64,000 nt of DNA from an uncultured Pelagibacteraceae bacterium (GCA_902635335.1 CACPNO010000001.1:95018-159017); one strand, 5' to 3'; positions 4,736 through 18,318 are shown, counted from the first letter of the stretch. Program-made: numbers and translations. The notes: generated by a model not told the origin, from the sequence alone.

Positions 4736-5869
4736 ATGATTAAAGACAAAAAACTAATGAAGGTAAAAAAAACGCCTTCAAGACGTAAGTTCTTTAAAGC
4801 TGCTGCTGCAACAGGTGTTGCCGCTGTAGCTGCATCATCTTTGTCTGCTCCAGCTGTTGCCAAAGACAGAATTGAAGTTTCAATGGTAGCAACTTGGGGA
4901 AGAGATTTCCCAGGTCTAGGAACTGGTGCACAAAGATTTGCGCAAAGAATTGGTGATGTAAGTGATGGAAGAATTCAAGTTACTTACTACGCTGCTAACG
5001 AAAGAGTTAAGGCATTTGACTCATTTGATGAAGTTGCTTCAGGTAACTCTCAAATGTATCATGCTGCAGACTATTATTGGGTGAAAAAAGATCCTGCTTG
5101 GGGTTACTTCACTGCAGTACCTTTCGGTTTCACTTACACAGAAATGAATGCTTGGATCAGATTTGCTGGTGGTCAACAATTATGGGATGAATTAGCAGAT
5201 AAATTTGGTCTAAAAAATTTCATGTGTGGTGATACAGGAGTTCAAATGGGTGGATGGTTTAACAAGAAAATCAGAAGTCCAAATGACTTTAAAGGTTTAA
5301 AAATGCGTATGCCTGGATTAGGTGGTCAAGTTATTGGTAAACTTGGAGGATCTCCAGTTTCACTTCCTGGTGGACAGATTTATGAAAACTTAGTGTCTGG
5401 TGCAATTGATGCAACAGAATGGGTTGGTCCATGGAATGATGAAGCAATGAAATTCCAAGAAGCAGCTAAATACTACTACTATCCTGGAATGCACGAACCT
5501 GGTTCAATGTTAGCTTGTGGATGTAATAAATCTTGGTTTACAAGTTTATCAAAATCAGATCAGTTGTTAATCGAAGCTTGTGCATCTACTGAAAACGACG
5601 TTATGATGTCAGAGTACAATGCTAAAAACGGAGCAGCATTAGCTAGATTGATAAACGACCATGGTGTTAAACTAGAGAAGTTTAGTGATAAAGTTTACGA
5701 TGGTTTTGGAAAAGCAGCAGAGGAAGTTTTTGAGGAAACTAGAGCAAGTAGTGGTCTCGCTGAGAGAATCCACACAAGTTTCTTAAAAGCTAGAAAAGAA
5801 ATTGGTGCTTGGACAAACCTATCAGACTCACCTTACATTCAGCAAAGAAACAGAGTGCTAGGAATGTAA
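4736..5869 (+). CDS. dctP: TRAP transporter solute-binding protein, TakP-like (2-oxo/2-hydroxy monocarboxylate), Tat-exported
   Basis: Twin-arginine signal SRRKFFK. YYW, GVQMGGW, KMRMPG, TEWVGP and HEPG motifs of the TakP-like subfamily. Confidence 0.9.
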   Translation: MIKDKKLMKVKKTPSRRKFFKAAAATGVAAVAASSLSAPAVAKDRIEVSMVATWGRDFPGLGTGAQRFAQRIGDVSDGRIQVTYYAANERVKAFDSFDEVASGNSQMYHAADYYWVKKDPAWGYFTAVPFGFTYTEMNAWIRFAGGQQLWDELADKFGLKNFMCGDTGVQMGGWFNKKIRSPNDFKGLKMRMPGLGGQVIGKLGGSPVSLPGGQIYENLVSGAIDATEWVGPWNDEAMKFQEAAKYYYYPGMHEPGSMLACGCNKSWFTSLSKSDQLLIEACASTENDVMMSEYNAKNGAALARLINDHGVKLEKFSDKVYDGFGKAAEEVFEETRASSGLAERIHTSFLKARKEIGAWTNLSDSPYIQQRNRVLGM

Positions 5870-5888
5870 TTACGTCTTTTATGTAATT

Positions 5889-5918
5889 AAAAGGGCCCTT
5901 AATTGGGCCCTTTTTTTT
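5889..5918 (+). terminator. Rho-independent terminator between dctP and dctQ
   Basis: AAAAGGGCCC-TTAATT-GGGCCC stem-loop followed by 8 T. Confidence 0.9.
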
Positions 5919-5958
5919 AGTTTCAATAAAAGTAAATTTTTAGTATTAAAAAAAATCT

Positions 5959-7008
5959 ATGGACTCCGAAAGTAAGATTACAGCACGTTATTTAAGAATT
6001 TTAAGCTACTCTGTGTTAGCTTTTACGCTAGCATTTTTAATAAATAATATTCTTACAGTTTGGGTCGACTGGCCAGGAGTAAAAAAAATTTTTTCTCATT
6101 ACGAATTATTTGGTTTTAAACAAAAAGCACTTCAAGGATCAGAATTAAATTATGGTTATTTGCAAATTGGAATTTATTTGATTTGTATTGCTGGAGTTAT
6201 TTTATACGTATTTAAAACATATTCTCAGACACTGGAACATGATTCAGAAATATTATCAAAATTTTCTGCATATTTAGTTAGATCATCTTTTTGGGCTGTA
6301 TTTCTAGTTGGTGTTGCTGATTTTATAATTTCATTCATGGTTGTGGAAAGACTATGGGAAGCTATTTTTAGTCCTGAGGTTAAAGCTTTTATGGTTAAAG
6401 CTCCTGAAAGAATTACATTTATACATTTTCCAATTATTTTAGGATCTTTCATAATTGGATATTTTACAAAATCAGTCGGATTTATTTGGCTTGCAGTTCT
6501 AGTCGTACTAAGTGAATTTGTAATAGTATTATCAAGATTTATATTTTCTTATGAGCAAGCTTTTCAGGGAGACCTTGTGAGATTTTGGTATGCAGCGCTA
6601 TATCTATTTGCAAGTGCATATGCTCTAATACACGAAGGTCACGTAAGAGTAGATGTCCTTTACTCTTCTTTTAGTGAGAGAAAAAAAGCATGGACTAATT
6701 CGATAGGTTCAGCACTTCTTGGAGTACCACTTTGTTTAATAGTTATCTTTTATGGTTTAAACGGTAAAGCAAGTATTATTAACGGACCCGTAGTTGCTTT
6801 TGAAGTAACTCAGCAAGGTTCTAACGGACTATATCTACTTTATTTAATGGCTGTTTATTTAGGAGTTTTTGCAGTTACGATGTTGCTGCAATTCACAAGT
6901 TATTTTATGAGCAGTAGCCACAAACTTCTGCAAAATGATGAAGAGGTAAATATTTCAAAGGTCGATAAAACAAATAAAGTTAGTATCGAAAATATGGAAA
7001 GCCAATAA
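5959..7008 (+). CDS. dctQ: TRAP small permease, unusually long (349 aa)
   Basis: HVRVDVLY DctQ motif in the C-terminal half, multiple TM segments, located between dctP and dctM. Confidence 0.85.
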   Translation: MDSESKITARYLRILSYSVLAFTLAFLINNILTVWVDWPGVKKIFSHYELFGFKQKALQGSELNYGYLQIGIYLICIAGVILYVFKTYSQTLEHDSEILSKFSAYLVRSSFWAVFLVGVADFIISFMVVERLWEAIFSPEVKAFMVKAPERITFIHFPIILGSFIIGYFTKSVGFIWLAVLVVLSEFVIVLSRFIFSYEQAFQGDLVRFWYAALYLFASAYALIHEGHVRVDVLYSSFSERKKAWTNSIGSALLGVPLCLIVIFYGLNGKASIINGPVVAFEVTQQGSNGLYLLYLMAVYLGVFAVTMLLQFTSYFMSSSHKLLQNDEEVNISKVDKTNKVSIENMESQ

Positions 7009-9659
7009 TGGAATTATTTTTTTTAGCTATATTAGTTTTAATTATGATTGCAGCTCTAGCTTCAGGGTATCCAGTTGCCTTTGCTCTTCCTGGTTCAGCT
7101 ATCATATCTATCGGTTTAGCAGCTTTTTTTGGTTATATTTTTGCTGGCGATGTTGATGCTTACTTCGCTGTCGATGGTCCAACCGAATGGCTTGTTGCTG
7201 GAATTACAAATTTTAGAAGTAATTACTGGGACGTCGAGACTGACACTTTAATTGCAATTCCCTTATTTATTTTTATGGGAATTATGCTTCAAAAATCAAA
7301 AATTGCTGAGGATTTATTAATAACTATGGGTCAATTATTTGGCCCGATACCTGGTGGTTTAGGTATTTCGGTAATATTTGTTGGTGCATTATTAGCTGCA
7401 ACTACAGGTATTGTCGGAGCAACAGTCATTGCAATGGGATTAATTTCATTACCTACAATGTTAAACAACAATTATGACAGAAAACTTGCAAGTGGAATTG
7501 TTTGCTCTTCTGGAACTCTAGGACAGATTATTCCGCCATCAATTGTATTAATTATTATAGCGGACCAATTAGCGAGCGCATCAGATGTTGCCAATAACAT
7601 GAGGCAGAACGATTATAAAGCTTTAACAGGCGAATTTAACATGCCAGGTGAATTTAGAGTAGGTTCATCCAGTGCCGGTGACATGTTCCTGGGAGCACTT
7701 TTACCAGGATTAGTACTTGTAGCTTTATATATGATCTATGTATTTTTCTATGCAAGAATAAAAAAAGGGGTTGCCCCACCTGTTCCATTTAAAGGAAACT
7801 TTGATTTCAAATTTTGGATGAGAGTTATTGTTATAATTATTCCTCCACTTGCATTAATTTTTGCTGTTTTAGGATCGATTCTTATGGGTATTGCAACTGT
7901 GAACCAAGCTGGTTCTATAGGAGCAATTGGAGCAACATTAATGGCGGGTTACCGTCTATTTCAAGGTAAGAAAAGTGCCTTCTATCCACTTATAATGATA
8001 ATTGGATCATTAATACCCATTACTTTTTTTGCATCAAATTATGAACTTAACATAAAAAATATAGAAGAAAGAGATTTAGGAGCAATTTATATAACTGCTA
8101 TTTTTGTAATCACTTTGGTTTATGGAATAGCATGGAGTTTTTGGAGAACATATAAAACTGAAAATGTTCTTAAAGAAGTAGTAACCGAAACGTGCGTTAC
8201 AACTTCGATGGTATTTATTATTTTATTAGGTGCTGCAATGCTTACATCAGGATTTAGAGCATTTGGTGGTGAAGAATTAGTAAGAGACTTCCTTCAAGAT
8301 TTACCCGGGGGCTTTTGGACTCAGTTTGTAGTTGTAATGATTGTAATATTCTTACTTGGGTTCTTTTTAGATTTTATTGAAATCGCTGTTGTGGTTGTTC
8401 CAATAATTGCACCTATATTATTAGCTGAGACAGGAGCAAACGTTACAGCGGTCTGGTTAGGTGTTATGATTGGTGTCAATTTACAAACCTCTTTTTTAAC
8501 TCCCCCCTTTGGTTTTGCCTTATTTTATTTAAAAGGTGTTGCTCCAAAAGTGGTACAAACATTAGATATTTGGAAAGGTGTTGTTCCATTTATAATTTTA
8601 CAACTCATTGGCCTAGCAATTGTAGGGTCTTATCCAAGTCTGGTAAATTATCTTCCAAATAGAGTTTATCTGACTTCAAATGTAGCTCCACCTCCTATGA
8701 ACCCGAAACTTCAATATTGTTTGCAAGAATATAAATTTGTAAAATATACAAACAATGCAGATGAAATAAAGAATAGCATAGACGATTTTGATTCAATAAT
8801 ACTTGCAAATTTACCAGCCGATAAGTTAAGTTATTTCCAACGTCATGTTGATAATTCAAATTATACATTTGAATTAGTTGATGATGTAAAAAGTGCCGAA
8901 GCTATTTACAATGATTACGCTGTTGATTATCGAGATTTACATTTCAAAACGAGAAAAAAACAAAAGAAAATTTTTAAACTCAATAAAAAAATAGATAAAT
9001 TTAAAGCCGAAATTAGAAATTTAGATGATGATGAAGTTTCTGAAAAAAATAAAATTGAACAAAGAATTGAGAACATAAAACTCGAAATTGACGAAATAGA
9101 AAACTCAATTTCTAAAGATTGGAAATCAAGAAATGATGAATTTAACAAGATTAATAAAGCAAAAAACTTAGCAGTAAAAAAATATCGTAAAACTGCAGAC
9201 AATGCATATGATGATTTAATGTTGATAAAATTATTTATTTTAGATGGTGAAAAATTTGAAGAATTAAATGAAGATATCAAAATTCTTAAATCTAAAATTG
9301 ACAATAGAGGATATTTAGATGCAATTGATCATATTGATAATATGTTTGATAAAGTAGGAGAGATTTCTGGATCAGATGAATTTGCAGATAAATTAGATTA
9401 TCTAATAACTATAATGGATGAAGATGAAAAAGATCCAGAACAAATTCAAAAAATAGCTAGTGATACTTATGCACATTTTGATCAAGAAGTAAGTTGGAGA
9501 AATGAATTTGACAAAAAATATATGGATAGAATAAATAATCACTTAACTGTATTAAGTGAAACTATTGGATTGAGGTTACAACAAAAACTTACAAAAGAGC
9601 AAGCAATTTATGTTTCAAAATGTAATTCAGTACACAGAGATATTTCTCTCAATTTTTGA
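7008..9659 (+). CDS. dctM: TRAP large permease with internal insertion and ~330-aa soluble C-terminal extension
   Basis: LIAIPLFIFMG, GTLGQIIPPS, LGFFLD and FLTPPFG DctM motifs. 883 aa. Confidence 0.9.
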   Translation: MELFFLAILVLIMIAALASGYPVAFALPGSAIISIGLAAFFGYIFAGDVDAYFAVDGPTEWLVAGITNFRSNYWDVETDTLIAIPLFIFMGIMLQKSKIAEDLLITMGQLFGPIPGGLGISVIFVGALLAATTGIVGATVIAMGLISLPTMLNNNYDRKLASGIVCSSGTLGQIIPPSIVLIIIADQLASASDVANNMRQNDYKALTGEFNMPGEFRVGSSSAGDMFLGALLPGLVLVALYMIYVFFYARIKKGVAPPVPFKGNFDFKFWMRVIVIIIPPLALIFAVLGSILMGIATVNQAGSIGAIGATLMAGYRLFQGKKSAFYPLIMIIGSLIPITFFASNYELNIKNIEERDLGAIYITAIFVITLVYGIAWSFWRTYKTENVLKEVVTETCVTTSMVFIILLGAAMLTSGFRAFGGEELVRDFLQDLPGGFWTQFVVVMIVIFLLGFFLDFIEIAVVVVPIIAPILLAETGANVTAVWLGVMIGVNLQTSFLTPPFGFALFYLKGVAPKVVQTLDIWKGVVPFIILQLIGLAIVGSYPSLVNYLPNRVYLTSNVAPPPMNPKLQYCLQEYKFVKYTNNADEIKNSIDDFDSIILANLPADKLSYFQRHVDNSNYTFELVDDVKSAEAIYNDYAVDYRDLHFKTRKKQKKIFKLNKKIDKFKAEIRNLDDDEVSEKNKIEQRIENIKLEIDEIENSISKDWKSRNDEFNKINKAKNLAVKKYRKTADNAYDDLMLIKLFILDGEKFEELNEDIKILKSKIDNRGYLDAIDHIDNMFDKVGEISGSDEFADKLDYLITIMDEDEKDPEQIQKIASDTYAHFDQEVSWRNEFDKKYMDRINNHLTVLSETIGLRLQQKLTKEQAIYVSKCNSVHRDISLNF

Positions 9660-10676
9660 TTAACTTGTAATCTGTTCAATTATATTTGTCCTTTGATATA
9701 AACTAAGTCTTTCCGCTTTGTCTTTTAATTTGTTATACTCAGTTTTTAATGTAAAGGTTTTTACATTAACTTTATTTCCAATTTCAATTATTGATCCAAT
9801 AATTGGATCTATTTCTAAAGGACGTTTTGCATGTAAGTCTTGCGTTGTCGAGGGTTTGTGACCAATAATAGAGATAGTAGCTTTAATTCTTTGATCGATT
9901 GAGACGTTGAATTTTACACCTATTTTCTCTCCTACTAACTGACATTCTTCCATCAATTTTCTTACGGTGTTTAATAATTCTGGGTCATTACCAATTTCAT
10001 CCAAAGTCTTATCATATAGTGCGCTTACTATATTAAATGAGCAATTACCCCAGAGCTTTATCCATATTTCATCTCTTAGATTACTTTTTTGTGGAGCTTT
10101 TAAGCCTCCTGCAATTAATAAGTCTGCAATAATTTTAAGTCTTTCTGATTTTGATCCATCTGGTTCGCCTAATGTAAATCTTTCACCACCATTGTGTTTA
10201 ATAACACCAGGTTCAGTAATTTCAGCTGCTGGATAAACCACACATCCAAGAGCTCTTGAAGGATTCAAAGAATTCCAAATCTTACCATCAGGATCAACAC
10301 TATCTATATGTTTCTCATCTAAGTTTGTCCCCGTGTTAGCTTTATGAAAATACCACCAAGGTAAGCCATTCACAGCAGATATTATAGTTGTATTTTTTCC
10401 AATTAAGCTTTGAAGAGAATCAACTATATTAGAAATTGCATGAGCTTTTATTGAAATAAAAATATAATCTTGAATTCCAAGTTCTTTGGGATCATCTGTT
10501 ACTTTTAATTTAAAGTTTTCTGTTTTATCTTTTTTAATTAATGTTAAACCATTTTCCTCAATAGCTTTTTTGTGTAGACCTCTGGCTATAAGTGATAAAT
10601 CAATATTATTTTTACTCAAACACGCAGCTAAATATCCCCCAATCGATCCTGCACCAAATATACAAACTTTTGTCAT
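9660..10676 (-). CDS. PanE/ApbA-family reductase, likely oxalyl-CoA reductase type rather than true ketopantoate reductase
   Basis: GAGSIG, NGLPWWYFH insertion and EIWIKLWGN. Translationally coupled to an oxalate-CoA-ligase-like gene. Confidence 0.75.
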   Translation of the reverse strand: MTKVCIFGAGSIGGYLAACLSKNNIDLSLIARGLHKKAIEENGLTLIKKDKTENFKLKVTDDPKELGIQDYIFISIKAHAISNIVDSLQSLIGKNTTIISAVNGLPWWYFHKANTGTNLDEKHIDSVDPDGKIWNSLNPSRALGCVVYPAAEITEPGVIKHNGGERFTLGEPDGSKSERLKIIADLLIAGGLKAPQKSNLRDEIWIKLWGNCSFNIVSALYDKTLDEIGNDPELLNTVRKLMEECQLVGEKIGVKFNVSIDQRIKATISIIGHKPSTTQDLHAKRPLEIDPIIGSIIEIGNKVNVKTFTLKTEYNKLKDKAERLSLYQRTNIIEQITS

Positions 10677-12184
10677 TAATTATTTAAACCAAATTTTTTT
10701 GCTAAAACATTTCTTTGTAATTTTCCTGTTGCTCCTTTTGGAATTTCTTCAACAAAAAAAATTTTTTTTGGTATTTTAAATTTAGCAAGTTTTTCTTGAG
10801 CATATTCTAAAACATCATTTTCTGAAAATGCCTCACCACTTTTTATTATAATTGCACTAGCAATATTTTCTCCAAGCATTTTGTCTTCATATCCAAAACA
10901 AACTGCTTGATCTATTAATGGATGGTCCATTAATACATTATCAACTTCTAATGGAGATATTTTTTCTCCACCTTTATTAATTATTTCTTTCAATCTTCCT
11001 GAAATCTTTAAATAACCCTCATTGTCGAAATAACCTTGATCGCCAGTTCTAAACCAACCATTGGTAAAACTTGTTTTGTTTGCTTCTTCATTATTATCGT
11101 ATCCAAGAGTTACATTTTCACCTTTTATACACACTTCTCCTTCATCACCTTGTTTTAGCACTTCCCCATCTTCGTTCATAATACATACCTCTGGACCTGC
11201 TGGAAGGCCTACAAATCCTGCTTTTTGTTGCTTAGGTGGCAATGGATTAGAAGTCATTTGGTGAGTAGCTTCTGTCATACCGTATGCTTCAATTACTGGG
11301 CAACTAAAAACATCATTTAAATCTTTGAATACTGCTGGTGGTAAAGATGCAGATGATGATCTAATTAATCTTAGTTTTAGTAGCTTAGCAACTTCTAAAT
11401 TTCTACTTGCTCTTAATAAAATAGCCTGATGCATTGTAGGCACCCCTGAGTACCAAGTTATTTTTTCTGATTTAGCAATATCTAAAAACTTGATAGCATT
11501 AAAACCATTTGATGCACATACAGATGCCCCAGCTTTCATTGATGAAGCTAAAATAGCTATAAGACCATGTATATGAAAAAGTGGCATAATATTAAGACAA
11601 TGGTCATTTTTAGAAAGATTTAAACTTTTAGAAATATTTTCTGCAGAAGAAAAAATATTTTTATTTGTTAAAGGAACAATTTTTGGTCTTGATGTAGTAC
11701 CAGAAGTGTGTAGCACTAATGCTTCATCATTTTCATCAGGTAAAGAATATTCACTTTCTTTTTCATAAATATTAAATATTCCTGAAGGTCCATCCTTTTC
11801 TGGATTAATCTCACATAATTCTATTTTTAATTTTTTTGCTACATCGACAACTGGATTTTCAGAATTTTTCTCAACCAAAACAATTTTTGGATTTAAATCT
11901 TTTAAATAAAATTCATACTCCTCAGATTTATATGATGGATTTAAAGGTGCAGCAGACATATAGCTTGAAATAGCTAAAAAACTTGAAGCCATATATGGCC
12001 CATTTGGTAAAACTATCGCTGCTCTATCTTTGTTTGATAATCCATTTCCAGCCAGCTGTTTAGAAATTTTATCTATAAATGATTTTAAATCTTTGTAATT
12101 TAGTTTTGTACTGATTTCAGAGGTTAGAGCAATATTTTCATCATTCACATTTTCAAAAATGTTTCTAACAATTCTTTTTGACAT
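10676..12184 (-). CDS. Acyl-CoA synthetase, oxalate-CoA ligase (AAE3/Pcs60/Oxs)-like
   Basis: LHTSGTTSRPK, MPLFHIHGL, RSSSASL, EAYGMTEATHQMTSNPLPP, INKGGEKISPLEVD and PKGATGKLQR. Confidence 0.8.
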   Translation of the reverse strand: MSKRIVRNIFENVNDENIALTSEISTKLNYKDLKSFIDKISKQLAGNGLSNKDRAAIVLPNGPYMASSFLAISSYMSAAPLNPSYKSEEYEFYLKDLNPKIVLVEKNSENPVVDVAKKLKIELCEINPEKDGPSGIFNIYEKESEYSLPDENDEALVLHTSGTTSRPKIVPLTNKNIFSSAENISKSLNLSKNDHCLNIMPLFHIHGLIAILASSMKAGASVCASNGFNAIKFLDIAKSEKITWYSGVPTMHQAILLRASRNLEVAKLLKLRLIRSSSASLPPAVFKDLNDVFSCPVIEAYGMTEATHQMTSNPLPPKQQKAGFVGLPAGPEVCIMNEDGEVLKQGDEGEVCIKGENVTLGYDNNEEANKTSFTNGWFRTGDQGYFDNEGYLKISGRLKEIINKGGEKISPLEVDNVLMDHPLIDQAVCFGYEDKMLGENIASAIIIKSGEAFSENDVLEYAQEKLAKFKIPKKIFFVEEIPKGATGKLQRNVLAKKFGLNN

Positions 12185-12187
12185 TAT

Positions 12188-13771
12188 TTAGTACCCTTTT
12201 GCGTAACCATCTTTTCTAGGATCAGATCCTCCTAAAAGATCCCCTTCTGTACGATTTATTTTAATAGCTTGACCTCCACCATGAGTGCCATCAATATACT
12301 CAACATTATGACCGATTTCTTTCAATTCGTTAAAAATTTGATTGTCAACTGATTTTTCAAGCTTATAAATATTGTTAAAATGAAAGGCTCTTGGAAAACT
12401 TAAAGCCTCTTGAGGACCCATGCCGTAATCAATCATATTATTTAAAACATGCACCTGTCCTACTGGTTGATATTGCCCTCCCATAACTCCATAGCTCAAA
12501 GTTGTATTGTTATCTTTGTCAATGACCATACCTGGAATTATAGTGTGTAATGGTCTTTTTAAGCCCTCAATACAGTTTGGATGTCCATGCTCTACTCTGA
12601 AATTTGTACCCCTGTTATGTAAAAGTATTCCACTTTTATTTGTAGTGATACCTGACCCAAATACGTAACAAACTGAATTAATGATGGACACACTATTTAA
12701 GTCTTTATCTACAACTGTTAGATAAATAGTTTCTGGGTGAGCTGGAATATTTAAGTCACCAACATCACTGCATGAATTGAGCTTAATTTTATTAAAAATA
12801 TCCTCAATATTTTTATCACTTAAAATTTCATCTAAATCAAAATTTACAAAATTTGGATCGCCTAAGCTTGTTTCTTTAACTTTATAAGCTTGTTTTGTAA
12901 CTTCGGCTTCAAGATGAAATCTTTCAGTACTATTGAATTTATAGTTATGAATATTTAGTTTTTCTAACAATTTCATCATAATCAAAACAGTTACGCCAGG
13001 TCCATTTGGAGGACATTGATGAATAAAATCACCCTTATAACTAGATTTTATTGTTTCTGATCTTATTGTGTTCTGTTTAGAAAAATCCTCAAAAGTATGC
13101 ACACCCCCTAATTCACTTAAACTTTCAATTATATCTTTTGCAGTTTCACCTTCATAAAATTCTTTACTTCCTTTTTTACTAATTGCCTCTAATGTTTTTC
13201 CTAATGGGATATTTTTCATTAATTCATTTTCTTGATAAGTACGACCTTCTTTCAAAAAAATTTTTTTAGAATTTTCATTTCCATTAATTTTATTTAAGCT
13301 ATTATGCCAAGCATTTGACACTACTTTAGAAATCTTGTGACCATTTTTTGCAATCTCAATTGCACCTGTAAATAATTGTTCAAAATCTAATTTTCCAAAT
13401 TCTTTATGAATAGTTTCCCAAGCATGAACTGCACCAGGAATCGTTACTGAATGAGGACTTGTTAATCCAATTTTATCTATATTTTTTTCCTTGAAGAAAT
13501 CATAACTTAATTTCTCTGGTGCTAACCCAGATCCATTAAAAGATACTGCATCCTGATTATTCATTTTGACAATTGCAAAACAGTCTCCACCAATACTTGT
13601 TGCATTAGGCTCAACCACAGATAAAACAATTGAAGCTGCTATAGAAGCATCTACTGCATTTCCACCCATTTTTAGTATTTTTAAGGCCTCTTCGGTCGCT
13701 AATGGATGAGAAGTTGCAGCCATAGCATTTGATGAGCGTGCATCTTTATCTTTTGTTGATTGATTATTCAT
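12188..13771 (-). CDS. Gamma-glutamyltransferase-family Ntn hydrolase (YwrD/HpxW-like clade), no signal peptide
   Basis: GGNAVDA, nucleophile Thr in ETIYLTVVD, FGSG, KRPLHTIIPG, GVMGG and SDPRKDG. Confidence 0.88.
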   Translation of the reverse strand: MNNQSTKDKDARSSNAMAATSHPLATEEALKILKMGGNAVDASIAASIVLSVVEPNATSIGGDCFAIVKMNNQDAVSFNGSGLAPEKLSYDFFKEKNIDKIGLTSPHSVTIPGAVHAWETIHKEFGKLDFEQLFTGAIEIAKNGHKISKVVSNAWHNSLNKINGNENSKKIFLKEGRTYQENELMKNIPLGKTLEAISKKGSKEFYEGETAKDIIESLSELGGVHTFEDFSKQNTIRSETIKSSYKGDFIHQCPPNGPGVTVLIMMKLLEKLNIHNYKFNSTERFHLEAEVTKQAYKVKETSLGDPNFVNFDLDEILSDKNIEDIFNKIKLNSCSDVGDLNIPAHPETIYLTVVDKDLNSVSIINSVCYVFGSGITTNKSGILLHNRGTNFRVEHGHPNCIEGLKRPLHTIIPGMVIDKDNNTTLSYGVMGGQYQPVGQVHVLNNMIDYGMGPQEALSFPRAFHFNNIYKLEKSVDNQIFNELKEIGHNVEYIDGTHGGGQAIKINRTEGDLLGGSDPRKDGYAKGY

Positions 13772-13800: not shown

Positions 13801-15012
13801 ATGATTACTAAAGTAAATAAAAGCATTATCATATTTTGTATTTTTGCCTTTGGTTTTTTATTATCAAATCTTGTTAGATCTATCACTGCAACATTAACAC
13901 CAGTCCTGACATATGAATTCGATTTAACAGCAGGAAATTTAGGACTGTTAGCAGGAGGCTATTTTATTGGCTTTTCAATTATGCAAGTCCCAATAGGACT
14001 ACTTCTTGATAAATATGGACCAAAAAAAGTCGTTGGATATTTTTTAGTAATTGCATTGGTAGGAACCATATCATTTGCATTAGCAAAAAGTTTTTCTGGG
14101 TTACTTATTTCAAGAATATTTATTGGGATCGGCGTGAGCGCTTGTATGATGGGACCTCTAACAGGATACAGAGTTTGGTTTGCTGAAAAATATCAACAGC
14201 GTGCTAATTCATGGATGTTAATGGTAGCAAATATAGGTTTTGTATCATCTACTTTACCTGTACAGATTTTATTACCATACATAGGATGGAGATGGATTTT
14301 CATTTTAATAGCTATACTTATTTTAATAAGTATTATTTTAATTTTTTTATTCACTCCTAATTGGGAACAGAAAGAAAACTTCACTGTTGATGAAGAAAAA
14401 AAAGGTTTAGCACAAATTTGGAAGAATAAGTTTTTTATCAGTATGGTACCATTGGCATTTATTAATTATGGTGGTATACAGGCAATCCAAACGCTTTGGG
14501 CTGGTCCTTGGATGCTAAATATTACAGGTTATTCTCCATTTCAAAGTGCTACAGGCTTGTTTTGGATCAATGTAACTATGTTAGCATCATACTTTTTATG
14601 GGGATATATTCTTCCCAAACTCTCTGATTATGGAATAAGTAGTGTTAAACTAATTAAATTTGGACTCCCAGTAAGTTACTTTGTTTTTTTTCTAATAATC
14701 TTTTTTGGTCCTAAAGCTGGAGCTTTTTTATTTGCAATATACATTATGACTTCAATTGTAATTTCTCTAACTCAACCAGCTATAGCTTTAAACTTTTCAC
14801 AAAATTTAGCAGGCAAGTCACTTACTTCATATAATGTATTCATTCATTCAGGAACATTCTTTATGCAATGGGGTATTGGATTATTTATAGACTTATTTAA
14901 TTCTAAAGGATTTGATATTGTAAGTAGTTATAGAATTTCTTTTTCAATTTTTTTAATTCTTTGTATATTAAGTTATATTTTTTTCAGTTATCTAAATAGA
15001 AATAATGATTAA
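13801..15012 (+). CDS. MFS transporter
   Basis: About 12 hydrophobic segments and motif A GLLLDKYGPKK. Confidence 0.88.
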   Translation: MITKVNKSIIIFCIFAFGFLLSNLVRSITATLTPVLTYEFDLTAGNLGLLAGGYFIGFSIMQVPIGLLLDKYGPKKVVGYFLVIALVGTISFALAKSFSGLLISRIFIGIGVSACMMGPLTGYRVWFAEKYQQRANSWMLMVANIGFVSSTLPVQILLPYIGWRWIFILIAILILISIILIFLFTPNWEQKENFTVDEEKKGLAQIWKNKFFISMVPLAFINYGGIQAIQTLWAGPWMLNITGYSPFQSATGLFWINVTMLASYFLWGYILPKLSDYGISSVKLIKFGLPVSYFVFFLIIFFGPKAGAFLFAIYIMTSIVISLTQPAIALNFSQNLAGKSLTSYNVFIHSGTFFMQWGIGLFIDLFNSKGFDIVSSYRISFSIFLILCILSYIFFSYLNRNND

Positions 15013-15814
15013 TAAAAAAATGACACTAACAAATATATTATTATTAATATTAATTATTTATATGTTTATTTGCATTTTTATTTTTTTTTATCAAAGAAAT
15101 CTTCTGTACCATCCAGGAGAAAATAATTATTTAGACGAAGGACCTTTGAATCACAAAATAGAAAAGGTATTTATTAACTCTGAAAGTAGTTTGGTTGGAT
15201 GGCACTTTCAAAAGAACGAAAATTATAAGACTATATTACTTTTTCATGGCAATGCTGGCAAACTTGATAATCGTATTTATAAATTAAATGAATTCTCAAA
15301 AATGAATGTTAACTATTTGATATTCGCTTATAGAGGATTTAGTGGAAATGATGGAAAACCTTCAGAAATAGGCCTTTATGAAGATGCTTTGGCAGCAAAG
15401 AAATGGCTAAATTCCAAGAAAATTGAAGATAAAAATATAATCTTGTACGGGGAGTCGTTGGGTACAGCAATTGCATTAAATCTAGCACAAGATTATTCTT
15501 TTAGTGGTGTGATATTAGAGTCACCGTTCACATCTATGGAAACACTAGCAAAAAGTTATTATCCATATTTGCCAGTCAAATATTTGTTAAAAGATAAATA
15601 CAATTCGATTAGTAAATTGAATAAAAATACATCTCCAATTCTGGTAATGCATGGTATGAAAGATAAAATTGTACCATTTAAAATGGGAAAAGAAATTTAT
15701 GATAAATTTAATGGAAAAAAATCAAGTTTTTTTGTTGAAAATGATGATCATATGATGGATTTTAACGAAAATCTCATAAACTCAATTGAGTTATTTATTA
15801 CACAATTAAATTAA
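15005..15814 (+). CDS. Membrane-anchored alpha/beta hydrolase (Bem46/ABHD13-like)
   Basis: N-terminal TM, FHGNAG, YRGF, GESLG nucleophile, HGMKDKIVP and a C-terminal His. Confidence 0.85.
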   Translation: MINKKMTLTNILLLILIIYMFICIFIFFYQRNLLYHPGENNYLDEGPLNHKIEKVFINSESSLVGWHFQKNENYKTILLFHGNAGKLDNRIYKLNEFSKMNVNYLIFAYRGFSGNDGKPSEIGLYEDALAAKKWLNSKKIEDKNIILYGESLGTAIALNLAQDYSFSGVILESPFTSMETLAKSYYPYLPVKYLLKDKYNSISKLNKNTSPILVMHGMKDKIVPFKMGKEIYDKFNGKKSSFFVENDDHMMDFNENLINSIELFITQLN

Positions 15815-18210: not shown

Positions 18211-18318
18211 ATCGCCGTTTCCGCAAAATACAGCAATTTGCGGTGTCTTTGGTAACAAAGAGATCGACACCAGTCAGCGAGAGTTCGCCCACTGGTGCGA
18301 TACTTGCTGGATGTGATT
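18211..18318 (+). ncRNA. ffh leader structured RNA motif (cis-regulatory)
   Basis: GC-rich island with stems CCGCAAA/TTTGCGG, TCTTTG-GTAA-CAAAGA, CACCAGT/ACTGGTG and GCGA/TCGC, plus pseudoknot CAGCAA(18231-36)/TTGCTG(18304-09). An ffh 5' motif is known in Pelagibacter and other alphaproteobacteria. Confidence 0.85.

Follow-up and report, generated by a model that had tools for sequence, protein, structure and literature searches.

A gamma-glutamyltranspeptidase-fold amidohydrolase gene beside a putative oxalate-CoA ligase and oxalyl-CoA reductase pair in a SAR11-type genome

Introduction

In the surface ocean, SAR11 bacteria outnumber all other heterotrophs, and the strains in culture depend on a supply of glycine or one of its precursors. 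Photochemical and biological oxidation both commonly yield oxalate as an end product. In plants, oxalyl-coenzyme A (oxalyl-CoA) goes to oxalyl-CoA decarboxylase and not to reduction, and in Klebsiella the enzyme HpxW hydrolyzes oxamate to oxalate and ammonia. Reduction of oxalyl-CoA is already known from Methylobacterium extorquens and Cupriavidus necator. PanE2 has been used in vitro for the conversion of oxalyl-CoA to glyoxylate (PMC8411744). In C. necator, a BLAST search with M. extorquens PanE2 led to apbA2 (51% identity), which lies near frc and oxc and whose deletion slows growth on oxalate (bioRxiv 10.1101/2020.05.08.083683). Here, we analyze a 64,000-nucleotide (nt) stretch of DNA from an uncultured Pelagibacteraceae bacterium (the window), in which three adjoining minus-strand genes encode a gamma-glutamyltranspeptidase (GGT)-like protein (P0001), an acyl-CoA ligase (P0002), and a PanE-like protein (P0003). 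The original prediction, made from the sequence of the window, held that the trio is a complete route from an amide through oxalate to glyoxylate.

The PanE2/ApbA2 route of M. extorquens and C. necator resembles this locus in that the reductase belongs to the same NCBIfam subfamily (NF005089), is linked to an oxalyl-CoA-forming enzyme, and would likewise deliver glyoxylate for assimilation. The two differ in the source of oxalyl-CoA, which is formyl-CoA transferase (Frc) in those organisms and, by our assignment, an ATP-dependent ligase of the AAE3 type here. The genome studied here also differs from those of the PanE2/ApbA2 hosts in being streamlined (~1.3 Mb) and in having a gene of the GGT fold ahead of the pair, and neither frc nor the oxalyl-CoA decarboxylase gene (oxc) was found in the genomes that we searched.

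Results and discussion

Layout of the locus

The open reading frames lie on the minus strand in the order P0001 (positions 12188 to 13771; 527 amino acids), P0002 (10676 to 12184; 502 amino acids), and P0003 (9660 to 10676; 338 amino acids). A 3-nt gap separates the P0001 stop from the P0002 start, and the P0002 stop and the P0003 start overlap by 1 base, an arrangement that the original prediction had described correctly. In Pfam, P0001 matched G_glu_transpept (PF01019; 433 bits), P0002 matched AMP-binding and AMP-binding_C, and P0003 matched ApbA and ApbA_C. The three motifs quoted in the prediction were all located in the translated proteins: LHTSGTTSRPK at residues 158 to 168 of P0002, EAYGMTEATHQM from residue 299 of the same protein, and NGLPWWYFH at residues 103 to 111 of P0003. 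The generic labels that automated annotation had been expected to assign (ggt, acyl-CoA synthetase, and panE) agree with the public names of near-identical proteins, which are “gamma-glutamyltranspeptidase/glutathione hydrolase,” “acyl-CoA synthetase (AMP-forming),” and “2-dehydropantoate 2-reductase.” The window has a G+C content of ~30%, and the named genomes nearest to it are single-cell genomes of uncultured Pelagibacteraceae, in agreement with the description of the genome as SAR11 type.

The ligase

P0002 is very probably an oxalate-CoA ligase of the AAE3/Pcs60 type (EC 6.2.1.8), as its resemblance to these enzymes had suggested at the outset. Its top matches among solved structures were Arabidopsis AAE3 (AtAAE3; 5ie0, 428 bits), grass pea LsOCS (6qjz, 416 bits), and yeast Pcs60 (8aff, 385 bits), compared with 210 bits for the next-best family, MenE (o-succinylbenzoate-CoA ligase), 203 bits for FadD13, and 195 bits for MatB. 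None of the NCBIfam models was passed by P0002; the best of them was FadD7, with 393 bits against a cut-off of 650. In the paper that describes LsOCS, eight residues are reported to shape the oxalate pocket of AtAAE3, and Ser289 and His319 are reported to contact oxalate, with conservation confined to oxalyl-CoA synthetases (PMC8905533). In our alignment, these two residues correspond to Ser278 (codon at 11351 to 11353, minus strand) and His308 (codon at 11261 to 11263, minus strand) of P0002. Five of the pocket residues (His216, Ser289, Met314, His319, and Lys500 of AtAAE3, the last being Lys488 of P0002) are identical in P0002, and the other three positions have changed conservatively (Val to Ile, Cys to Ser, and Ala to Gly). 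The pocket Ser, His, Met, and Lys were invariant in 80 of 80 ligases that adjoin a PanE2-like gene. Unlike AtAAE3, LsOCS, and Pcs60, P0002 is encoded by a bacterial gene that is translationally coupled to a reductase gene, and the protein has no peroxisomal signal.

The reductase

P0003 scored 390 bits against NCBIfam NF005089 (cut-off, 223), a model that C. necator ApbA2 matches with 515 bits, and the two proteins are 47% identical; the link from P0003 to M. extorquens PanE2 runs through ApbA2. The C. necator gene is the only one of its kind in that genome and lies 1.4 kb from frc, which passes its equivalog cut-off, and 7.3 kb from the true oxc, a position that fits the published description of apbA2. 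Against E. coli PanE, P0003 scored only ~32 bits, and against an uncharacterized “ketopantoate reductase” from Ralstonia it scored 205 bits. The NGLPWWYFH motif (10344 to 10370, minus strand) is a hallmark of the reductase clade and is followed by an insertion relative to canonical PanE; N103, G104, P106, W108, and Y109 were invariant in 23 members of the clade, and the match of P0003 to TIGR00745 is split at this motif. A homolog search with P0003 returned only close SAR11 relatives. On these comparisons, P0003 is likely to be an NAD(P)H-dependent oxalyl-CoA reductase (EC 1.2.1.17) of the ApbA2/PanE2 clade.

We considered whether P0003 might instead be the PanE of the pantothenate pathway and rejected this assignment. 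The window's genome and three close relatives carry a second PanE-family gene whose match to TIGR00745 (240 bits) is unbroken and which co-occurs with panB, and one relative (G085) has neither panB nor a canonical PanE yet keeps a P0003-type gene. In the window's genome (G000), the canonical PanE gene, outside the window on contig 13 (80 to 2805), adjoins a weak panB-like paralog, and the true panB is on contig 26. Two fusions were seen among the related reductases: in P0151 (604 amino acids), the PanE2-like domain stands behind a domain of the fumarylacetoacetate hydrolase family, and in P0209, an ACT domain follows the reductase.

Conservation of the ligase-reductase pair

We scanned one genome per named species and collected 80 loci with relatives of P0003 (42 to 91% identity), and we assembled a second set of 30 loci from an even sample of the phylum. 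In 61 of the 80 species loci and 18 of the 30 phylum loci, the gene immediately upstream, in the same orientation, was that of an AAE3-like ligase; Frc was encoded in the locus, with no ligase, in a further 5 and 7, respectively. The reductase thus almost always travels with an enzyme that makes oxalyl-CoA, and the tie between the ApbA2/PanE2 clade and oxalyl-CoA-forming enzymes is well supported across dozens of species. Together with membership in NF005089 alongside ApbA2 and the separate PanE that tracks panB, this linkage upholds the proposal that the PanE-like protein is of the oxalyl-CoA reductase type and not a true PanE.

PanE2-like loci were found in SAR116, Planktomarina, many Rhodobacterales, Rhodospirillales, and Hyphomicrobiales, and some Burkholderiaceae and Gammaproteobacteria. 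The pairs of SAR116, “Ca. Levibacter,” and Planktomarina (loci L091 to L094) are 67 to 69% and 61 to 64% identical to the SAR11 pair, compared with about 50% and 45% for other Alphaproteobacteria. Because the former are so much closer, these values suggest that marine surface lineages have exchanged the ligase-reductase pair.

Within the Pelagibacterales, we used an even sample of 201 species genomes, of which 153 are of high quality. The ligase was present in 20 of the 201 (the window's genome counted), including 19 of the 153 high-quality genomes, so that about one in eight of the latter carries the pair. Nearly all of the 20 belong to the window's own genus; one is a member of another genus and has the order reductase-ligase at ~50% identity. 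The reductase gene was adjacent in all 20, and the whole trio was present in 17. The original prediction expected the trio to co-occur across marine genomes, and for the ligase and reductase this was so in all 20 sampled SAR11 genomes that have the ligase; the GGT-like gene is less firmly attached, as described below.

Fate of oxalyl-CoA

The proposed route shares the intermediate oxalyl-CoA with the Frc/oxalyl-CoA decarboxylase (Oxc) pathway. No oxc or frc gene was present in the window, as had been noted originally, and none scored above the NCBIfam cut-off in the window's 64%-complete genome or in four trio-bearing relatives that are 94 to 99% complete; the best scores in the five genomes were 196 against a cut-off of 504 for TIGR03253 and 214 against a cut-off of 739 for TIGR03254. 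Malate synthase G was present in all five. Since the decarboxylating branch was not found, the carbon appears to be kept and not burnt, which fits the assimilatory, as opposed to energy-yielding, role first proposed. In such a role, the ligase would convert oxalate, ATP, and CoA to oxalyl-CoA, and the PanE2/ApbA2-type reductase would reduce this with NAD(P)H to glyoxylate, which could enter malate through malate synthase G or give glycine by transamination.

Conservation of the oxalate-contacting residues in all 80 linked ligases makes it very unlikely that the ligase and the reductase act on another small acid (glyoxylate, glycolate, or malonate), even though the grass pea enzyme does act on glyoxylate, 61-fold below its action on oxalate (PMC8905533). 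The reaction of ApbA2/PanE2 has been treated as reversible in C. necator (bioRxiv 10.1101/2020.05.08.083683), and glycolate- and glyoxylate-type genes are present upstream in the window, both of which would suit a pair that runs from glyoxylate. However, an AMP-forming ligase drives flux toward the thioester, and neither oxc nor frc was found that could consume oxalyl-CoA made from glyoxylate. Furthermore, where the ligase is absent, it is Frc, also a maker of oxalyl-CoA, that stands in its place.

The GGT-like protein

P0001 has the GGT fold and is predicted to be a cytoplasmic N-terminal nucleophile amidohydrolase of the class that includes YwrD, the class IV acylases, and HpxW. Its predicted autoprocessing and catalytic nucleophile, Thr348 (codon at 12728 to 12730, minus strand), aligns with Thr391 of E. 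coli GGT and the first residue of the HpxW small subunit and was invariant in 40 relatives, and the oxyanion pair Gly431-Gly432 is kept. The residues with which E. coli GGT binds the alpha-carboxylate and alpha-amino groups of glutamate are, by alignment, all replaced: Arg114 by Ser81, Asn411 by Cys368, Gln430 by Arg387, Asp433 by Asn390, Ser462 by His409, and Ser463 by Thr410. The sequence Arg387-Gly-Thr-Asn390 (12602 to 12613, minus strand) thereby occupies the canonical Gln430...Asp433 site for the alpha-amino group. In 37 relatives of the class, the Arg, His-Thr, and Ser81 positions were almost invariant, and the position of Asp433 was never acidic. Reading of the P0001 N terminus gave no export signal: it is polar and lacks a hydrophobic stretch, and homology begins at residue 13. 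The small-subunit motifs NRG, P-x-HT, and MGG-x-x-QP (GGxxQP) are common to P0001, HpxW, and the structures 2nlz and 2i3o but are not found in canonical GGTs.

P0001 keeps the catalytic Thr and the Gly-Gly pair of a canonical GGT or glutathione hydrolase; we rejected this assignment on account of the missing glutamate-binding residues and signal sequence. According to a review (PMC8062742), E. coli GGT with the D433N substitution no longer transpeptidates and gains the ability to act as a glutaryl-amide acylase, Asn is the natural residue at this position in class IV cephalosporin acylases, and no role has been assigned to YwrD. Since D433N shifts GGT toward amides of dicarboxylates that lack an amino group, we counted the Asn of P0001 in favor of an amidase. 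The lost glutamate-binding residues, the class motifs, and the conservation within the class together suggest that P0001 acts in the cytoplasm on amides whose acyl group lacks an alpha-amino group.

The closest solved relatives of P0001 are the YwrD and class IV acylase types (2nlz and 2i3o), which are likewise cytoplasmic, with Asn where E. coli GGT has Asp433 and Ser where it has Arg114. They differ in that YwrD-type proteins are without an assigned physiological role, and for P0001 a role is suggested by its conserved operon partner. HpxW (5hft) shares the GGT fold, the Thr nucleophile, and the small-subunit motifs; its overall similarity is weak, and the Asp433 position is Ala in HpxW and Asn in P0001. 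To our knowledge, HpxW is the only enzyme of the NRG/HT/GGxxQP class with an assigned role. By these comparisons, P0001 would belong to the class that contains HpxW, its only known producer of oxalate, without being an HpxW ortholog. The likeness to HpxW that was implied originally therefore holds for the class motifs; HpxW is not the nearest relative, since both 2nlz and canonical GGTs score higher.

As substrate of P0001 we propose either the monoamide of a dicarboxylic acid, oxamate for instance, or a compound with an N-oxalyl group. P0001 would cleave the imported compound, most likely to ammonium or an amine plus oxalate, and the oxalate would pass to the ligase.

It is extremely unlikely that the database names are right, i.e., that a glutathione hydrolase, a fatty acyl-CoA ligase, and a ketopantoate reductase are neighbors by chance. 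P0001 does pass TIGR00066 (374 bits; cut-off, 358), P0003 passes TIGR00745, and the source labels agree with these names; each name nonetheless meets an obstacle in the protein or genome concerned. P0001 lacks the glutamate-binding residues and signal peptide of its namesake, P0002 falls well short of the FadD7 cut-off and has oxalate ligases as its top solved matches, and a better PanE candidate tracks panB. Chance adjacency also sits poorly with a ligase-reductase pairing that recurs in 61 of 80 species loci.

Linkage of the amidase to the pair

The order GGT-ligase-reductase is the same in seven genomes of a distant alphaproteobacterial genus with genomes of 6 to 7 Mb, and in a Poriferihabitaceae metagenome-assembled genome (MAG), the order is ligase-reductase-GGT. 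In a quick maximum-likelihood tree, GGT genes linked to the pair fell into at least three separate clades on well-supported branches (Pelagibacter, the 6- to 7-Mb genus, and the Poriferihabitaceae MAG), and the linkage has thus been gained or retained repeatedly. In three further MAGs, more distant GGT types lie beside the pair or near the reductase. One of the loci examined, from a Rhodobacteraceae MAG (L147), has a GGT of another type (9045 to 10826, minus strand) that is convergent and directly follows the ligase-reductase pair; it scored 619 bits against PDB entry 6j3a, on which no paper was found, and is 24% identical to P0001. In the 6- to 7-Mb genus (L068, 1 to 10912), the trio is preceded by genes for a PotD/SBP_bac_8-type binding protein, an ATP-binding cassette (ABC) ATPase, and two permeases; a GntR/FCD regulator is encoded divergently. 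The transporter class thus differs from that of SAR11, for what may be the same substrate.

Several observations weigh against a pathway that begins at the amidase. P0001 scored 251 bits against the YwrD-type structure 2nlz and 217 bits against canonical GGTs, compared with 87 and 75 bits against the large and small subunits of HpxW, and no signature of pocket residues was found that is shared among the pair-linked GGT clades or with HpxW. Among the 21 sampled SAR11 genomes with a GGT ortholog, 5 have it at the same locus without the ligase and reductase. In G091 and G059, the same locus reads TRAP-GGT-MFS with the pair missing (the GGT is 91% and the MFS transporter 95 to 96% identical to those of the window), and in G065 and G136 the pair lies at another site and the GGT is absent. 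The non-SAR11 proteins nearest to P0001 (43 to 45% identity) are not encoded beside the pair, and the neighborhoods of GGT genes outside SAR11 are heterogeneous and give no clue to the substrate. In the phylum sample, 15 genomes have both the pair and such a GGT, and the two are linked only in the seven genomes of one genus. The window's genome is only 64% complete, and the evidence for the activities of the trio comes from sequence throughout, the substrates included. GGT with MFS and ligase with reductase look like two modules that are able to work apart and have been joined repeatedly.

One account of this pattern is that the two modules are independent. The amidase and the MFS transporter, perhaps with the TRAP transporter, would then serve a non-oxalate substrate, for example an unusual gamma-glutamyl compound or an amide of the glutaryl or succinyl type, with nitrogen as the main gain, and the pair would have been inserted beside them in some SAR11. 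The loci in which one module occurs without the other speak for this account, as do the unlinked relatives outside SAR11 and the fact that the best solved relative of P0001 is a YwrD-type protein with no assigned role. The ligase gene, however, starts only 3 nt after the GGT stop, and the linkage recurs in the distant genus and in the Poriferihabitaceae MAG; at least three separate linkage events are far above chance adjacency in genomes of thousands of genes. In addition, HpxW, of the same motif class, makes oxalate. We therefore consider full independence of the two modules somewhat unlikely.

Use of the amidase first for nitrogen, with salvage of its acid product, perhaps oxalate, where the pair is present, fits the distribution. 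That the amidase feeds oxalate to the pair is a possibility that we advance tentatively. In the complete route from amide to glyoxylate that was predicted, the steps from oxalate to glyoxylate are well supported; the oxamate step is not established, both because P0001 is closer to 2nlz than to HpxW and because GGT orthologs occur without the pair. Building on the observed family assignments, pocket residues, and conserved gene order, we favor with moderate confidence a reading of the whole locus as an amidase-fed two-step oxalate assimilation unit, all of its substrates and its direction of flux being deduced from such comparisons.

Seawater metatranscriptome contigs from four studies cover all three genes at 92 to 100% identity and bridge both junctions, in three runs between reductase and ligase and in two between ligase and GGT. 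These contigs are compatible with cotranscription of the trio and do not prove a single transcript; they tell neither strand, nor ends, nor expression level, and contaminating DNA is possible.

Novelty and implications

The addition of a GGT-type amidase to the ligase-reductase pair is the new element of this locus; our literature search found no published description of the recurrent attachment of a YwrD/HpxW-class amidase to such a pair. Should the oxalate-to-glyoxylate route operate as proposed, it would add oxalate to the short list of SAR11 carbon sources. Marker surveys for frc and oxc and default annotation would both miss the route in this organism, the latter because it labels the reductase as a vitamin B5 gene and the ligase generically. 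If the amidase does feed the pair, nitrogen scavenging would be coupled to glycine supply, a way round the SAR11 glycine requirement, and the large orphan family of YwrD-type GGT homologs would gain its first physiological role beyond Klebsiella HpxW. A more specific proposal, which we regard as doubtful at present, is that a YwrD/HpxW-class amidase is the entry enzyme of a marine route in which oxamate or other N-oxalyl compounds yield nitrogen as well as a C2 skeleton, so that SAR11 obtains ammonium and glyoxylate. Such compounds might, for instance, arise from dissolved organic nitrogen by photo-oxidation or purine breakdown. A 2025 paper on SAR11 habitats reports genetic potential for oxalate use in offshore genera; in the accessible part of that paper, the underlying genes were not found (PMC12636525).

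Neighboring genes

Upstream in the window are genes for a flavin mononucleotide-dependent 2-hydroxyacid dehydrogenase, an aminotransferase, a GlcD-like oxidase, a glyoxylate-reductase-like dehydrogenase, and a TRAP transporter, and the genomic setting is therefore one of C2/C3 acid metabolism. The TRAP transporter genes (DctP-DctQ-DctM by Pfam; 4736 to 9659, plus strand) are convergent on the trio, and their product is a possible carboxylate importer, perhaps connected with the trio. The DctM gene (7008 to 9659, plus strand) encodes 883 amino acids, about twice the usual length, and the long form is kept in related genomes (73 to 99% identity). Its stop and the convergent stop of the P0003 gene abut, with zero bases between them.

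Divergent from the GGT-like gene, across a 29-nt spacer, is a gene for an MFS transporter (PF07690; 13801 to 15012, plus strand), a candidate importer of the amidase substrate. We sought an informative relative of this transporter; the best PDB match was NorA, with 36 bits, and NCBIfam scores were far under the cut-offs. Given such uninformative matches, the label of oxalate or oxamate carrier could not be assigned to it. The end of the MFS gene is overlapped by 8 nt by an alpha/beta hydrolase gene (15005 to 15814, plus strand), which is probably cotranscribed with it and whose product may act on the same imported compound. In relatives, the alpha/beta hydrolase is only 52 to 53% identical, compared with 95 to 96% for the MFS transporter.

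Pfam and NCBIfam scans of the genes neighboring the trio gave no purine or ureide gene, and an Rfam search gave no riboswitch near the trio. A promoter scan performed at chance level (24 sites found and 26 expected). Farther along the window, Rfam identified the ffh small RNA (RF01793; 58.7 bits) at 18253 to 18305 on the plus strand, just upstream of the ffh gene and overlapping its start.

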